The notes under the pieces were generated by a model, which was not told the origin of the DNA, made no database searches, and worked only from the letters and a program-made list of their open reading frames with translations. From the IMG/VR virus record IMGVR_UViG_2534681701_000015: a DNA stretch of 32,028 nt. One strand, written 5' to 3'. A program made the position numbers and the translations under genes. Source of the DNA: a virus (Duplodnaviria > Heunggongvirae > Uroviricota > Caudoviricetes). Every line of letters begins with the position of its first letter. Within the stretch, counting starts at the first letter, position 1. Below are positions 3,384 through 22,227 of the stretch, piece by piece.

Positions 3384-4003
3384 TACTTCACCTCCTGCGG
3401 CGGCTCCGGTAGCGGCATCCAGTGGGTTACTTTCGATGCCGGTTCTTCCCCATTGTCAGTAACTGCCCACCATTTGTTTCTCGAACAATCGTAATACCCT
3501 TCGAAGGTATCGCACTCAGTCCAGCCGTAAGACTTACCCCAACACCAAACATACTGTTTATCGTTCGGCATTCGCTCACTACAGCTTATCCAACCATCCG
3601 GAGTTACCGGAGAGTTGCCCGACAGCTTGTTCAACTTATAAGTCTGGCTTACAGGTTTGGCACCATGAAGCATGGTGGCGCGGCAGGCGTTCCAGCCTTC
3701 ATCAAAACCGACTATGCCATTATTTAAAGACGGACGAGCATCTGGCACCACCAGTACTGGCTTGGCTATATATAGCGGCTGAACATACCAGCCCTTTGAT
3801 AACCAACTGTCAGCAATGTTTTTGCTCCTGGTTATTGCCGGAATACCTAAGCCATTGTCTGAATGCAGCCATGCCACCGGCTCCTCTTCCAGCGATGCCA
3901 GAGCAATTTCATAAGCACGGCGCTCAATATCGTCTCGAATCTCTAGGCTGCTGATTCGTTCTTTGATTTCTTTAATCAGTTCTTTATTGGTAAATGTGGT
4001 CAT
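3383..4003 (-). CDS. DUF551-family phage protein
   Basis: 206 aa; C-terminal THWMPLPEPP is characteristic of DUF551; translationally coupled to its neighbours. Confidence 0.65.
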   Translation of the reverse strand: MTTFTNKELIKEIKERISSLEIRDDIERRAYEIALASLEEEPVAWLHSDNGLGIPAITRSKNIADSWLSKGWYVQPLYIAKPVLVVPDARPSLNNGIVGFDEGWNACRATMLHGAKPVSQTYKLNKLSGNSPVTPDGWISCSERMPNDKQYVWCWGKSYGWTECDTFEGYYDCSRNKWWAVTDNGEEPASKVTHWMPLPEPPQEVK

Positions 4004-4365
4004 TATGCTCCAGCCTCCGGCGCTTTAGGTATTACTGCCCAGTGAGTGATATTGAAGTTTTCAAGGTCCCCGACCTGAAATGTCCACTGCCATTCTCCGG
4101 TTTCTTTTTGTCCCCAGGTGTACCAGAGAGAACGCCAGCCAATCAGCCAGCCTTCTCCGTTAGCATCAAGTAACAGAACACTTTCATTTGCTGGTGGCAG
4201 TTCAGCTGACACTGGTATTATTTTGTTTTCCAGTGCCGCACATTTAGCTTCAAGCGCGTCGAATTTACGTACCAGGTACTCAGCATTTGTTTCGTTCACT
4301 TTCAGATCTCGCGGTACACATTTCCCGCGAAGAAACCCTTCCATTTCGAAAACATTCATGCGCAT
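4003..4365 (-). CDS. Hypothetical early-left phage protein (120 aa)
   Basis: ORF overlapping the HD gene by 10 nt and the DUF551 gene by 1 nt; C-terminal ITHWAVIPKAPE is DUF551-like. Confidence 0.5.
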   Translation of the reverse strand: MRMNVFEMEGFLRGKCVPRDLKVNETNAEYLVRKFDALEAKCAALENKIIPVSAELPPANESVLLLDANGEGWLIGWRSLWYTWGQKETGEWQWTFQVGDLENFNITHWAVIPKAPEAGA

Positions 4366-7837: not shown

Positions 7838-8700
7838 GCTTAGTCAGCCGTTGTCTCCGGGTGTCGCGTGCGCAGTTGCACGTCATTCTCAGACGAACCG
7901 ATGACTGGATGGATGGCCGCCGCAGTCGTCACACTGATGATACGGATGTGCTTCTCCGTATACACCATGTTATCGGAGAGCTGCCCACGTATGGTTATCG
8001 TCGGGTATGGGCGCTGCTTCGCAGACAGGCAGAACTTGATGGTATGCCTGCGATCAATGCCAAACGTGTTTACCGGATCATGCGCCAGAATGCGCTGTTG
8101 CTTGAGCGAAAACCTGCTGTACCGCCATCGAAACGGGCACATACAGGCAGAGTGGCCGTGAAAGAAAGCAATCAGCGATGGTGCTCTGACGGGTTCGAGT
8201 TCTGCTGTGATAACGGAGAGAGACTGCGTGTCACGTTCGCGCTGGACTGCTGTGATCGTGAGGCACTGCACTGGGCGGTCACTACCGGCGGCTTCAACAG
8301 TGAAACAGTACAGGACGTCATGCTGGGAGCGGTGGAACGCCGCTTCGGCAACGATCTTCCGTCGTCTCCAGTGGAGTGGCTGACGGATAATGGTTCATGC
8401 TACCGGGCTAATGAAACACGCCAGTTCGCCCGGATGTTGGGACTTGAACCGAAGAACACGGCGGTGCGGAGTCCGGAGAGTAACGGAATAGCAGAGAGCT
8501 TCGTGAAAACGATAAAGCGTGACTACATCAGTATCATGCCCAAACCAGACGGGTTAACGGCAGCAAAGAACCTTGCAGAGGCGTTCGAGCATTATAACGA
8601 ATGGCATCCGCATAGTGCGCTGGGTTATCGCTCGCCACGGGAATATCTGCGGCAGCGGGCTTGTAATGGGTTAAGTGATAACAGATGTCTGGAAATATAG
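7795..8700 (+). CDS. insD: IS2 OrfB (InsD), transposase catalytic domain, made as an OrfAB fusion by -1 frameshift
   Basis: 301-aa ORF with DDE integrase-like core, overlapping the end of insC in the -1 frame. Confidence 0.9.
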
Positions 8701-16729: not shown

Positions 16730-17725
16730 GTGACCGTGAGAGCGCTACTGACCCCTGAAATTGCCCCGCGTATGGGGATCGTATTGTTCAGGCCAGGTTC
16801 AGAGCTGATGCCCCTGTTTATGCAGGGGCGTGTCCTGCTGGAGCCTGAGCCGGAACGTTATTCATCTTTCGCCAGTGGTGCCGTTCCGGCTGCATCACAA
16901 CCGCTGGCGGATGATCCTGCCGTTTGGGCCGTGTTCCGCAATGAGGCAGTGATTCGTCGTGCTGGTGGAGTGGAATGTCTTGAACGCTGGTTACTTCGTG
17001 AAAAAGGTTGCCAGTGGCCTCATTCCGACTGGCACAGCGAGAACATGACCACAATGCGACACACGCCGGGCGCAATCCGTCTGTGCTGGCACTGCGATAA
17101 CCAGCTGCGCGATCAGTTCACGGAACGGCTGGAATCAATGGCAACGGATAACTGTACCCGCTGGGTGTTGTCTGTTGTGCGTCGGGATCTCGGTTTTGAT
17201 GACAGTCACGTTGTGACAATGCCGGAACTGTGCTGGTGGCTGATTCGTAATGACCTGGCGGATGCCTTACCGGAAAGTGCAGCCCGTAAGGCACTGAGAT
17301 TACCGAAGCCTGTTGTGCCGTCTGTCACCCGGGAAAGTGACCTTGTGCCTTCGGTTCCTGCCACCAGCATCATCCAGGATAAAGCGAAAAAGGTGCTGGC
17401 GCTGAAAGTGGATCCGGAGTCGCCGGAGTCTTTTATGTTACGCCCAAAACGTCGCCGCTGGGTTAATGAAAAGTACACGCGCTGGGTTAAGACACAGCCG
17501 TGTGCATGTTGTGGAAAGCCTGCTGATGATCCCCACCACCTGATAGGTCACGGTCAGGGAGGAATGGGAACAAAAGCGCATGACCTTTTTGTGTTGCCTT
17601 TGTGCAGAAAGCATCACGACGAGCTGCATGCGGATACCGTGGCATTTGAAGAGAAGTATGGCTCCCAGCTGGAGCTGATATTTCGTTTTATCGATCGTGC
17701 GCTGGCAATTGGCGTGCTGGCCTGA
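16730..17725 (+). CDS. DUF968-family protein with C-terminal HNH-like zinc-binding motif
   Basis: C-terminus [43 protein letters not shown]. Confidence 0.6.
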
Positions 17726-17742
17726 TTTTGTGGAGAAAGTTG

Positions 17743-18108
17743 ATGCGTGATATTCAAATGGTTCTTGAACGTTGGGGGGCATGGGTGGCAAATAATCACG
17801 AGGATGTCACCTGGTCGTCTATTGCTGCAGGATTTAAAGGACTAATCCCTTCAAAAGTAAAATCCCGCCCGCAATGTTGTGACGATGACGCGATGATCAT
17901 TTGTGGGTGCATGGCTCGCCTGAAAAAGAACAACAGCGATTTGCACGATTTATTAGTGGATTATTATGTAGGTGGTATGACGTTTATGGCGCTTGCCCGT
18001 AAACATGGGCGTTCTGATTGCTGGGTTGGGCGTTTATTGCAAAAGGCTGAAGGTGTAGTTGATGGCATGTTAATGATGTTAGAAATTGAGCTAGAGATGG
18101 ATCGTTAG
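17743..18108 (+). CDS. Q: Late-gene antiterminator Q
   Basis: ATG 17743 with SD GGAGA; [25 protein letters not shown]... with a Cys cluster; last gene before the lysis region. Confidence 0.8.
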
Positions 18109-18191: not shown

Positions 18192-18638
18192 TTAAGGTTT
18201 TAATTCATCAAGACGTTGTTGGATAGTGTTTTTGCTTGCGTTGTCTGTTATAGCCATTTGTTGTACTTGCCCCATTGCCATTTGAGTTTCCATCCACATA
18301 TCGGCCCACACTTTTGTATCGTTATTAACTTGAGCGATAGTAAATCTGACTTTTGATACCGGGGTTGTTGAATAGGCATTTCCGATTAACATTTGTCCAA
18401 AAACAGCAGAGCCGCCTTCCAGTTCTTTACCACATATAACACTGCTGTTATCCGCGTTGTAAATTATCAACCCTCTACTATTGCAGTAATTCACAAGGGC
18501 ATCTTTGACTTTATCTTTTGTCGTATTTTGATAAACCCCCTCAGGTTTTCCTGATTGAGTTTTCTTTATCAATGGTACGGAAGAAGTACAACCTGAAATG
18601 ATAGTTGCGCTAAGTAATAGTACAGTCATTTTATTCAT
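18192..18638 (-). CDS. Lipoprotein moron (148 aa) encoded antisense between Q and the tRNA cluster
   Basis: Signal peptide plus lipobox MNKMTVLLLSATIISGC; visibly AT-rich; hairpin GGGGAG..CTCCCC at 18151-18172 just beyond its stop. Confidence 0.7.
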   Translation of the reverse strand: MNKMTVLLLSATIISGCTSSVPLIKKTQSGKPEGVYQNTTKDKVKDALVNYCNSRGLIIYNADNSSVICGKELEGGSAVFGQMLIGNAYSTTPVSKVRFTIAQVNNDTKVWADMWMETQMAMGQVQQMAITDNASKNTIQQRLDELKP

Positions 18639-18906: not shown

Positions 18907-18982
18907 GGCCCTTTAGCTCAGTGGTGAGAGCGAGCGACTCATAATCGCCAGGTCGCTGGTTCAAATCCAGCAAGGGCCACCA
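18907..18982 (+). tRNA. tRNA with CAU anticodon (ileX/ileZ-like tRNA-Ile2 or Met)
   Basis: Cloverleaf folded by hand: acceptor GGCCCTT/AAGGGCC, D-arm GCTCAGTGGTGAGAGC, anticodon loop CTCATAA, T-loop TTCAAAT, 3' ACCA. Confidence 0.8.
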
Positions 18983-18983
18983 A

Positions 18984-19060
18984 CTGCCACTAGCTCATCA
19001 GGAAAGAGCGTCAACCCTTTAAGTTGAGAGTGCGAGGTTCGAGTCCCCGGTGGCGGTCCA
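18984..19060 (+). tRNA. tRNA-like gene, identity uncertain (anticodon loop CCTTTAA; UUU/Lys if canonical, but C at position 33)
   Basis: Acceptor CTGCCAC/GTGGCGG (one G-U), D-arm GCTC..GAGC, anticodon stem TCAAC/GTTGA, T-arm CGAGG-TTCGAGT-CCCCG (one mismatch), 3' TCCA. Confidence 0.5.
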
Positions 19061-19062
19061 GT

Positions 19063-19138
<76 letters not shown>

Positions 19139-19141
19139 TGT

Positions 19142-19216
<75 letters not shown>

Positions 19217-19344: not shown

Positions 19345-19422
19345 TAAGCACTCTGCTTTTATTCCGATTAACTGTGGGTGGTTTGTTGGATAGAGTGCTT
19401 CCCTTACTGTATATATCGTTTC

Positions 19423-19446
19423 GCCCGCTTTTGCGGGTTTTTCTTT
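19423..19446 (+). terminator. Intrinsic terminator upstream of the holin gene
   Basis: GCCCGC-TTTT-GCGGGT hairpin followed by TTTTTCTTTT. Confidence 0.5.
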
Positions 19447-19507
19447 TCAAATCCCTTTCATTTCTCAGTGTAAAACTACGCCATCCGTTATTTGCGGAGG
19501 TGAGGCT

Positions 19508-19723
19508 ATGAAATCCATGGACAAAATTTCAACGGGCATTGCCTACGGCACCTCCGCAGGCAGTGCTGGCTACTGGTTTTTACAGTGGCTTGATCAGGTC
19601 AGTCCGTCACAGTGGGCTGCGATTGGTGTACTGGGGAGTCTGGTGCTGGGCTTCCTGACTTATCTGACAAATCTGTACTTCAAAATAAGAGAAGATAAGC
19701 GTAAGGCTGCACGGGGAGAGTAA
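19508..19723 (+). CDS. S: Pinholin, phage-21 S21 type, with dual-start motif
   Basis: [71 protein letters not shown]; SD GGAGG 7 nt before the ATG. Confidence 0.9.
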
Positions 19724-19727
19724 TTCA

Positions 19728-20072
19728 ATGACACAAAAATATGAACTGATTGTGAAAGGGATCCGCAATTTTGAGAATAAAGTTACGGTAACTTTAGCAT
19801 TACGGGACAAAAAACGCTTTGACGGTGAAATTTTAGACCTGGACATCTCGCTGGACCGTGTTGAAGGTGCCGCGCTGGAGTTTTATGAGGCAGCAGCCAG
19901 AAGGAGCATCAGACAGGTCTTCCTGGATGTTGCTGCCGGGTTATGTGAAGGGGATGAGCAGTCACCGGAAAAGCGCCCCATAATTTTAGAGGCGCAGGGT
20001 GTGTGGATAACCTACAAAGGAAAACTGCCGGGAAGAATTACTGGTTCACTGAAGACTCCGCCGAAATGGTAA
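19728..20072 (+). CDS. Hypothetical 114-aa protein inserted between holin and endolysin
   Basis: ATG 4 nt after the holin stop, SD GGGGAGAG; no recognisable motif. Confidence 0.5.
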   Translation: MTQKYELIVKGIRNFENKVTVTLALRDKKRFDGEILDLDISLDRVEGAALEFYEAAARRSIRQVFLDVAAGLCEGDEQSPEKRPIILEAQGVWITYKGKLPGRITGSLKTPPKW

Positions 20073-20310
20073 TTTCACCAGCATATTTTTCTTCCAGTAA
20101 TACCGCCAGCCACTTGAAAGAATTTTGTTGTTGCTGGGACCATTTGGGGTTGAGTGATTCAAGCTGGAGCGATGCCAGTGTTGGTTGCATTTGTTCCTTG
20201 GGAATTGAGAATGCCAGATATGAAAATGCGACAGTAAGGGCATTTACATCATCCCGAAGCTTGGAAATGCAGTCGAGCAACTCCTGTAGAGAAATGGTGC
20301 TATTGTCCAT
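20038..20310 (-). CDS. Hypothetical 90-aa protein, convergent with and overlapping the 3' end of the 114-aa ORF
   Basis: ATG 20310 with SD AGAGAGGA 6 nt upstream (the caller's TTG start at 20316 is probably too long); 35-bp 3' overlap with 19728-20072. Confidence 0.45.
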   Translation of the reverse strand: MDNSTISLQELLDCISKLRDDVNALTVAFSYLAFSIPKEQMQPTLASLQLESLNPKWSQQQQNSFKWLAVLLEEKYAGEITISAESSVNQ

Positions 20311-20415
20311 AAACAATCCTCTCTATTGTATTTAACTATTCCTTGCCTGATTCAACAGGCCGGGACAGATAAACATATCCAGGGTTCAGAAACCGATAAA
20401 TCCTGATAAATATCC

Positions 20416-20949
20416 ATGAGCGCAAAAATCAAATACGGCCTGTCAGCTGCTGTTCTGGCGCTGATTGCTGCAGGCGCGTCTGCTCCTCAAATACTTGACC
20501 AGTTTCTGGATGAAAAAGAGGGTAACCACACTACGGCATACCGCGATGGTTCCGGTATATGGACCATCTGTCGTGGTGCCACAATGGTGGATGGTAAGCC
20601 CGTCATACCGGGAATGAAGCTGTCGAAGGAAAAATGCGACCAGGTTAACGCTATTGAACGTGATAAGGCGCTGGCATGGGTGGAGCGCAATATTAAAGTA
20701 CCACTGACCGAACCACAGAAAGCGGGTATAGCGTCATTTTGTCCCTATAACATTGGCCCCGGTAAGTGTTTCCCGTCGACGTTTTATAAGCGGCTGAATG
20801 CCGGTGATCGTAAGAGTGCATACGAGGCGATTCGCTGGTGGATAAAAGATGGTGGGCGCGATTGCCGCATACGTTCAAATAACTGCTATGGACAGGTTAT
20901 TCGTCGTGACCAGGAAAGCGCATTAGCCTGTTGGGGGATAGATCAGTGA
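20416..20949 (+). CDS. R: SAR endolysin (GH24 lysozyme)
   Basis: N-terminal signal-anchor-release segment [16 protein letters not shown]; catalytic E...D...T pattern in [20 protein letters not shown]. Confidence 0.9.
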
Positions 20950-21413
20950 GCAGAGTCGCCGCGATTATTTATGCTCTGGTTATCTGCATCATCGTCTGCC
21001 TGTCGTGGGCGGTCAATCATTGCCGTGATAACGCCATCGCCTACAAAGAACAGCGTGATAAAAAAGTCAGTGAGCTGAAGCAGGCGACCGCCACCATTAC
21101 TGACATGCAGCAACGCCAGCGTGCTGCTGATGTACTCGATGCTAAATACACGAAGGAGTTGGCTGATGCGAAAGCTGAAAATGATGCTCTTCGGCGCAAG
21201 CTTGATAATGGTGGTCGGGTGCTCGTCAAAGGAAAATGCTCTGTGCCATCCTCAGCCGAAACCTCCAGCGCCTCCGGCATGGGCAATGATGCCACCGTCG
21301 AACTCTCTCCAGTTGCTGGACGAAACGTTCTCGGTATCCGGGACGGAATCATCAGAGACCAGACAGCACTGAGAACGCTTCAGGAATATATCAGGACGCA
21401 ATGCCTTCGATGA
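20946..21413 (+). CDS. Rz: Spanin, inner-membrane subunit Rz
   Basis: GTG overlapping the R stop (GTGA); N-terminal TM segment [19 protein letters not shown] followed by coiled-coil-like sequence. Confidence 0.8.
21166..21372 (+). CDS. Rz1: Spanin, outer-membrane lipoprotein subunit Rz1, embedded in Rz in the +1 frame
   Basis: [22 protein letters not shown] lipobox then Pro-rich [11 protein letters not shown]; SD AGGAG 7 nt before the ATG. Confidence 0.8.
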
Positions 21414-22039
21414 TAGCGATAATTTTACTCATCATCCTTCACATCTGGCTCTGTAGACAGGGTGGTGATCACTTCTGGAGTGAATCCAGATTAAACATCT
21501 CATTGCTGATGCTTGAAGTTGAGCATCTGGCGCGCGGTAAGGGGCTGCGTTGAAATAAGAGCCAGTCATTACAAATACCAGGATTTAGCCTCGTATTCGC
21601 GGGGCTTTTTATTGCCATTACAAAAGCCACTCCCTACAGAGTGGCTTTGATAATGGCTTATACCCTACACGGGATAACTTAACTGATATCCCTTTTAACG
21701 GATAAAGGTATTCAAGCCTGACACATCATGCGCTGTATCGTCGCCGTATTCCCGTATTAACAGAGACCGTAGCCCGACGGGGAACTCCTTCTGCGAGAGT
21801 GTGCGGGAATAATCAAAAACGATGCACACCGGGTTTTTACCGCGTTTATGGTTCGCGGGTTTGTCCCTCATGCTCGCCAGTCCTGTGCGGGGGTGGAAGA
21901 AACAGGATACTCACACAGATTCTTGTGGGCACGATGCTATTCCTTTCTGGATTATCCCGATGCCATTCATGCAAGGCGCTGTATCAGACGTTCGTCATGG
22001 CTGTCAGGCTGACGGGTCCTCCCGGTGGGGTGGCCTGCC

Positions 22040-22062
22040 ACGGGGCGGGAGCGTCGCGGAAA
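22040..22062. other. cos site (cosN-like) for cohesive-end packaging
   Basis: CACGGGGCGGGAGCGTCGCGG resembles the lambda cohesive-end region (GGGCGGCGACCTCGCGG) and lies about 180 bp upstream of terS, as in lambda. Confidence 0.45.
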
Positions 22063-22227
22063 AAGGCTAGTTTTTGCATTTTTATCGGCCACCATCATCT
22101 TTGCATCTTATTGATTATTAATGTTATTTGTTTTTTGTATGTCGAATTGAGTGTTTTTTGTTCGACATCGAACGCGTTTTCTTAAAGTTGTTCGCACGAT
22201 GCATGTTTAAAGCTCTCCGGAGGAAAT

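Follow-up and report, generated by a model that had tools for sequence, protein, structure and literature searches.

The lysis cassette carried by IMG/VR virus record IMGVR_UViG_2534681701_000015, a 32,028-nucleotide stretch of caudoviral DNA that is called the window below, raises the question of why two convergent open reading frames (ORFs) lie between the gene of an S21-type pinholin (S) and that of a signal-arrest-release (SAR) lysozyme (R). An earlier reading made from the nucleotide letters (the sequence-only reading) had described ORF1, of 114 amino acids, and ORF2, of 90 amino acids, with a 35-bp overlap of their 3' ends; these coordinates and this geometry are confirmed (Table 1). It proposed three candidates for the pair: a lysis regulator, an antisense-regulated toxin/immunity pair or a moron expressed in lysogeny. 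We favour, with a probability of about 0.7, the explanation that the ~690-bp segment is not one device and that two passenger genes, unrelated to each other, share a variable slot in the late (lysis) operon of lambdoid phages: ORF1, which is ydfR, would be expressed late, and ORF2 would be a moron in reverse orientation. The find is real and ordinary in kind, a known and widespread late-operon passenger beside a reverse moron of an unnamed family.

ORF1 matches Pfam family DUF1327 over model positions 1-92 of 93 with 142.7 bits, for a cut-off (gathering threshold) of 25, and RefSeq names it YdfR family protein. Prophage Qin of Escherichia coli K-12 has the gene order essQ-ydfR-rrrQ, which puts ydfR (b1555) in the same position, from an S21-type holin gene to a lysozyme gene, as in the window. 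The K-12 protein, of 103 residues, shares 80% identity with the 114-residue YdfR of the window over residues 1-74 and is divergent beyond residue 74. K-12 ydfR overlaps the start of rrrQ by 4 bp, whereas in the window a 343-bp stretch with ORF2 separates the two genes. The holin-ydfR-lysozyme order is also found in many RefSeq genomes. Among 5426 complete E. coli genomes, S21-type holin DNA occurs at 16,895 places in 5166 genomes and ydfR-like DNA at 8608 places in 4349 genomes; about half of the E. coli S21-type holin genes are associated with ydfR-like DNA, and the other half have no detectable ydfR-like DNA. By these counts, holin and endolysin genes are not as a rule adjacent in E. coli prophages, contrary to the premise of the sequence-only reading. 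The statement that neither ORF matches anything falls for ORF1, and the rarity that it implied does not stand either: homologous cassettes show the segment to be common and annotated, albeit without a function. The result chiefly clears a false lead, the holin-ydfR-lysozyme layout being standard in E. coli prophages and present in K-12.

The ATG of ydfR lies 4 nt past the TAA of the holin gene (19721-23), to which its translation is probably coupled. Its product is soluble and basic, with an isoelectric point (pI) of 8.7 and no membrane segment (Kyte-Doolittle 19-residue maximum 0.69). AlphaFold2 models a beta-beta-beta-alpha domain at residues 5-72, with a predicted local distance difference test score (pLDDT) of about 60-83, followed by a tail of low confidence. 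Conservation in the family runs from residue 1 to ~112, and the ends vary (KW, ESQP, or extensions of 60-150 residues); a second branch splits off near residue 83. Some copies (loci L015 and L014; alignment A4) are mosaic, with an alternative N-terminal half (MKKKYELVVKGINNYPDK…) fused to the same C-terminal half. The mosaic halves and the varied C-terminal extensions suggest recombination inside ydfR.

ORF2 belongs to a small family of 63 clusters at 90% identity. It aligns to phrog_2411 over positions 1-90 of 90 (E 4.3e-59), and 12 of 12 diverse family members match the same entry, while no Pfam family covers any of them. There are 18 representative clusters among 1.84 billion proteins, and the named members all come from Enterobacterales. 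They have in common the core motif ELLD.I..L...VN.L..AFSYLAFS. The ORF2 protein is acidic and soluble (pI 4.4; Kyte-Doolittle 19-residue maximum 0.88, no membrane segment), and its AlphaFold2 model shows four helices and a disordered tail (pLDDT 71.6). Sequence searches of NCBIfam, PADLOC and PDB returned no match for YdfR or for the ORF2 protein. A literature search by RefSeq accession and gene names found no work on ORF2; for YdfR, the substantive work found is a 2026 study (PMC13232886).

Both ORFs are real genes under purifying selection, with ratios of nonsynonymous to synonymous substitution (dN/dS) of about 0.2-0.5. The ratios are pairwise Nei-Gojobori estimates over diverged copies, the codons of the overlap being taken separately. 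Codons 1-102 of ydfR give 0.2-0.48 for most pairs, and two near-identical pairs with very few substitutions give 0.79 and 1.81; the holin gene gives 0.04-0.19 for comparison, and codons 1-79 of ORF2 give 0.16-0.60. A plus-strand ORF of 110 amino acids (20003-20335) shadows ORF2 on the opposite strand and is open in the window and in Escherichia albertii. It has wobble positions in common with ORF2, which prevents dN/dS by itself from telling the coding strand. The coding strand was settled by stop counts across homologues: the ORF2 frame is open in 11 of 11 copies, including the plasmid, Serratia and metagenome relatives, and stop codons interrupt the plus frame in most of these copies.

The two genes are distributed independently. 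The ORF2 segment, covered over at least 80% of its length, is present in about 1053 of the complete E. coli genomes, and ORF2 is carried by 3 of 50,697 phage records. The Qin cassette of K-12 has ydfR without ORF2. Phage vB_EcoS-689R5 carries the same holin gene and ydfR, with flanks more than 95% identical to those of the window, and lacks the segment with ORF2 (Table 1), whose guanine-plus-cytosine (GC) content of 42.3% differs modestly from the 50.0% of S and 50.6% of R. Conversely, tblastn finds contigs in which ORF2 still lies between the holin gene and the lysozyme gene while ydfR has shrunk to a fragment. One genome has a deletion from about ydfR codon 19 into the start of ORF2, and frameshifted variants of ORF2 exist. 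Since each gene is found without the other, ydfR and ORF2 are not a pair, and an obligate toxin/immunity pair is excluded.

Other cassettes with these genes show further variation in their surroundings. In loci L006-L008 (1089-3164 in L006), which have ORF2 with a fragment of ydfR, a ParD/ParE-like pair directly follows the lysozyme gene. Shiga toxin (Stx) prophages L015 and L017 (2300-5273) carry, in order, stxAB, a PmrD-like gene, the S21 holin gene, ydfR and ORF2. A second and different lysis cassette (Phage_holin_8, Phage_holin_3_7, M15 peptidase) comes next in L017; L016, where stx genes are lacking, has it as well.

Table 1. Position, strand and basis of the features in and around the lysis cassette of the window
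Feature	Positions	Strand	Basis or remark
Q antiterminator gene	17728-18108		PF06530
Terminator-like hairpin and T-run, upstream of the holin gene	19423..19438	+	Terminator consensus scan
S21-type (class II) pinholin gene	19508..19723	+	PF04971 (phage 21 holin family), E 1.4e-35; phrog holin families
Shine-Dalgarno GGGGAGAG of ydfR, inside the 3' end of the holin gene	19713..19720	+	Read from sequence
ydfR (ORF1), 114 aa	19728..20072	+	Pfam DUF1327 / PF07041, E 4.2e-42
35-bp convergent 3' overlap of ydfR and ORF2	20038..20072	.	YdfR residues 104-114; ORF2 residues about 80-90
ORF2, 90 aa	20038..20310	-	phrog_2411; RefSeq hypothetical WP_000370546; ATG at 20310, stop 20038-40
Present/absent segment of ~285 bp: ORF2 and ~40 bp of 5' flank	20067..20350	-	Alignment A2 with vB_EcoS-689R5; boundaries within few bases
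Shine-Dalgarno GAGAGG of ORF2	20318..20323	-	GAGG 7 nt before ATG; conserved in E. coli copies
Weak promoter-like element	20325..20355	-	TTGAAT (20355-20350), 19-nt spacer, TACAAT (20330-20325)
SAR-type phage lysozyme gene (rrrQ-like)	20416..20949	+	PF00959, E 2.2e-23; E-x8-D-x5-T motif in translation
Rz spanin gene	20931..21413	+	PF03245, E 9e-29
Candidate embedded Rz1 lipoprotein ORF	about 21166-21372		Suggested by lipobox-like sequence in translation

The overlap itself looks incidental, encoding disordered tails alone according to the models: both overlap-encoded tails have pLDDT below 50 in AlphaFold2, and dN/dS there is mostly ~0.2 in the ydfR frame and ~1 and noisy in the ORF2 frame. 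Since the ORF2 frame is unconstrained in this stretch and both tails are predicted to be unstructured, the overlap would be a by-product of packing and not a designed regulatory element.

Relatives of ORF2 at other sites strengthen its description as a moron. The scan of genomes for them used a 5-sequence alignment. In phage contexts ORF2 is found in prophages of E. coli, Shigella and E. albertii, and the identical protein is encoded in the Rac remnant of the BL21-lineage strain B95.deltaA, which makes tests of expression and phenotype cheap. Members at 30-40% identity occur in Klebsiella, Atlantibacter, Sodalis, Brenneria and Serratia. The Klebsiella relative is antisense to late genes beside the terminase, and the Atlantibacter relative, likewise antisense, is flanked by two tail genes and has a short overlap at its 3' end. 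These two copies have ~160 bp of homologous 5' sequence (score 35.5 against 8.9 +/- 1.3 for shuffles); because this homology persists despite different insertion sites, the unit appears to carry its own upstream region. On the late strand, both cassettes have a terminator-like hairpin and T-run at their far (5') end (L033 4852-4866 in Klebsiella, L035 4856-4873 in Atlantibacter).

Two groups of relatives stand outside phages. A paralogue at 61% identity (RefSeq WP_000976359 and WP_042054335, one UniRef entry being named 'Ybl58') is present on 75 plasmids of the collection, mostly conjugative E. coli plasmids and including IncF; it shares with ORF2 the full-length phrog_2411 family and the motif. 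The paralogue is downstream of a glycosylated autotransporter adhesin locus, whereas ORF2 is in a prophage. It lies ~300 bp downstream of the autotransporter adhesin gene (L018 6001-6270; L003 2460-2738), and an O-heptosyltransferase gene is nearby. The relative is gene X of a syntenic chromosomal pyrC-dinI-X-bssS-solA order in six species of Serratia and in one metagenome-assembled genome of Enterobacterales (L019 4971-5249; L023-L029 about 3968-4250), and the dinI terminator is upstream of it in these loci. The family repeatedly lands backwards in late operons, and in Serratia it also supplies a core-like gene that neighbours dinI and bssS.

The junction between ydfR and R receives other reverse genes as well. 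In PhiR5_1 a reverse 86-amino-acid ORF (L030 1543-1803, minus strand) lies between a longer ydfR (211 amino acids) and the lysozyme gene, and in Stx2-converting phage 86 a reverse 104-amino-acid ORF (L031 1777-2091, minus strand) is beside a longer ydfR (268 amino acids). Profile comparison with hhalign finds both unrelated to ORF2 (probability below 1%). As unrelated reverse ORFs occupy the same slot, reverse cargo recurs at the ydfR-R junction, which is a small, naturally occurring model of a recombination slot whose reverse genes can be exchanged. A more ambitious version of this idea, in which the junction would be a dedicated landing slot for reverse cargo expressed from the prophage, antisense transcription into ydfR and the holin gene would insure against leaky lysis genes, and the ORF2 family would be a new host-modulating factor acting possibly with or against YdfR, is in our opinion speculative and rather improbable.

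Like the morons of other lambdoid phages, ORF2 is present or absent among collinear phages, has a lower GC content and has relatives scattered at other positions of late operons. The closest likeness is to lambda bor, reportedly a reverse-oriented gene expressed in the lysogen and located beside the lysis cassette: both are small extra genes, opposite to the late operon, in or next to the lysis genes. Their products differ, that of bor being a lipoprotein and that of ORF2 a soluble, acidic, helical protein. Of the three earlier candidates the lysogeny-expressed moron is thus the best for ORF2, given the present/absent segment, its lower GC content, the antisense relatives and the standalone plasmid and Serratia genes; no convincing promoter or terminator of the unit was found. 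Window positions 20371-20408, immediately upstream of the lysozyme gene and present in ORF2-less phages too, show a weak similarity to the 5' region of the Atlantibacter relative, an equal score being reached by 8-32 of 2000 shuffles. The similarity hints that cassettes without ORF2 may have arisen by deletion rather than that ORF2 was inserted.

Signals for the expression of ORF2 are uneven. Its own Shine-Dalgarno sequence, claimed by the sequence-only reading, holds up and is conserved in the E. coli copies. The possible promoter is weak: TACAAT is kept in 6 of 7 E. coli copies, and the -35 element TTGAAT is not conserved, the spacer is 19 nt and the consensus scan is silent. In the Stx prophage locus L015 an IS66 element ends exactly at the putative -35. 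A LexA box upstream of ORF2, sought by eye, was rejected for its wrong spacing. Autonomous expression is suggested mainly by the orientation of ORF2 and by its relatives outside phages, for which promoters of their own must exist.

Our explanation can be worded as a sequence of events. The ydfR gene would share with S, R and Rz the transcript of the late promoter, antiterminated by Q, and would be translated by coupling to the stop codon of the holin gene. YdfR would most likely act late in infection by binding RNase E and/or RNA, adjusting RNA decay rather than the timing of lysis. This role is deduced from the published binding of K-12 YdfR to the N-terminal, catalytic half of the enzyme and from the 80% identity of the domain. 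In a two-hybrid assay residues 1-72 of K-12 YdfR are enough to give a signal with RNase E 1-597, Strep-tagged K-12 YdfR (Strep-YdfR) pulls along Rne 1-598 on purification, and DNase-resistant nucleic acid co-purifies with it (PMC13232886). In view of the identity over residues 1-74, the window YdfR probably contacts RNase E too. In the prophage ORF2 would probably have a transcript of its own, and upon induction the convergent late transcription would silence it. Its product, at a guess, would bind a host protein and affect the physiology of the lysogen.

Phages are known to encode modulators of RNase E, namely Srd of T4, Dip of phiKZ (PDB 5FT0) and gp0.7 of T7. If the K-12 result holds for the window protein, YdfR would, like T4 Srd, contact the N-terminal half of RNase E. 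YdfR has no sequence relationship to Srd, Dip or gp0.7, and in its case contact with RNase E (in K-12) goes along with little change of the transcriptome. As ydfR is among the commonest E. coli prophage genes of unassigned role, RNase E gives it a testable partner, and its place in the late operon hints at when the contact matters.

Several points weigh against this explanation. Overproduction of K-12 YdfR alters few transcripts (PMC13232886). The binding to RNase E is a result obtained with the K-12 protein, whose sequence diverges after residue 74. The tight linkage of ydfR to S21-type holin genes could reflect a lysis-related role. For ORF2, the fold search matched only generic helical repeats, the consensus scan calls no sigma-70 promoter upstream of it or of any relative, and the same scan finds no terminator-like site on the minus strand from 20038 to the holin gene. 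The anatomy of a classical moron is therefore incomplete, no terminator being found on the ORF2 strand and ORF2 ending inside ydfR. ORF2 differs in this from lambdoid morons: by the consensus scan it has no recognisable flanking promoter or terminator, and its expression in the lysogen is a prediction.

The most serious rival, which we nevertheless hold to be doubtful, is that YdfR, possibly with ORF2, regulates lysis by tuning the triggering of the pinholin or the release of the SAR endolysin, whence the position between S and R. That position, the coupling to the holin stop, the 4-bp overlap of K-12 ydfR with the start of rrrQ and the association of about half of the S21-type holin genes with ydfR-like DNA all agree with such a role, as does a genetic screen linking ydfR to envelope integrity, which is cited in PMC13232886. 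However, both proteins lack a membrane or SAR-like segment: the hydropathy maxima of YdfR and ORF2 compare with 1.72 for the holin and 1.78, at residue 9, for the hydrophobic, SAR-like N-terminus of the lysozyme. At the remaining half of the holin places ydfR-like DNA is not detectable, and in phage 21 and DLP12 the holin and lysozyme genes are adjacent, which we count against a regulator. The holin protein starts with MKSM, a dual start (M1 and M4) that already supplies an antiholin. ORF2 runs against the late operon, so that its expression at lysis would be poor. Finally, the published partner of YdfR is RNase E (PMC13232886), and this together with the missing membrane segment makes the lysis regulator of the sequence-only reading unlikely for YdfR.

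A second rival is that the slot selects antisense transcription and not a protein, the reverse gene damping leaky expression of ydfR and the holin gene in lysogens. It would explain why three unrelated reverse ORFs are found in the same ydfR-R slot of different phages, and it fits the convergent, overlapping arrangement of ydfR and ORF2 and the lack of a minus-strand terminator-like site between ORF2 and the holin gene in the consensus scan. We consider it improbable: ORF2 is under purifying selection as a protein, its family is present in non-phage contexts, many prophages with the same holin gene have an empty slot, and the late genes are already silent without Q. The promoter that would drive the antisense transcript is moreover putative, the consensus scan calling none.

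The idea that the 3' overlap regulates a toxin/immunity or toxin-antitoxin pair is largely refuted by distribution and is very improbable. Its appeal lies in two small adjacent genes whose products have opposite charge (pI 8.7 and 4.4) and which overlap convergently. The genes occur independently, however: ydfR is in 4349 genomes and ORF2 in about 1053, and ORF2 is present with a ydfR fragment and, without ydfR, on plasmids and in Serratia. ORF2 copies with frameshifts and the deletion that removes most of ydfR plus the ORF2 start also speak against a pair. Neither product is hydrophobic or toxin-like, and PADLOC, Pfam and NCBIfam give no toxin, antitoxin or defence match. Strong overproduction of K-12 YdfR was not reported to arrest growth, in contrast to YegJ in the same study (PMC13232886).

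That ORF2 is a chance or shadow ORF antisense to a non-coding spacer, with ydfR alone being real, might be argued from the lack of a Pfam or NCBIfam family, from its presence in so few phage records and from the blindness of dN/dS to strand, and is highly improbable in view of the frame that stays open in all 11 copies, relatives of 30-60% identity included, while the plus frame has stops in most, of the conserved ATG and GAGG, of the family motif and of the confident helical core of the model.

The surroundings of the cassette are those of a lambdoid E. coli prophage with genes for an integrase, a cI-type repressor, the Q antiterminator and DUF1441 and GpA terminase proteins. The chromosome of strain 510016, the closest relative, matches window positions 19400-20500 at 99.8% identity. 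In that strain (L001 10017-12451) an IS21-family element truncates the lysozyme gene, so that its prophage is defective; the copy in the window is intact. The order 3' of Q is a reverse 148-amino-acid ORF, four tRNA genes, the terminator-like hairpin and the lysis genes. The hairpin is a candidate terminator of the late operon that would be read through under Q antitermination. Downstream of the cassette, ~800 bp from Rz to the gene of the small terminase subunit (21414-22227) are without a convincing ORF and could carry cos or a regulatory region.

The reverse 148-amino-acid ORF (18192-18638, minus strand), between the Q gene and the tRNA cluster, has a GC content of 37.8% and a lipoprotein-like signal (…IISGC). 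It has no Pfam or PADLOC match, its RefSeq entry being the hypothetical protein WP_001038608, and it looks like another moron. The four tRNA genes (CAT, Lys-TTT, Thr-TGT and Gly-TCC) lie at 18907-19216 on the plus strand, in the interval from Q to the holin gene; the Rfam scan finds these four and no further matches. The CAT tRNA is called Met by ARAGORN and tRNA-Ile by RefSeq on a near-identical copy.

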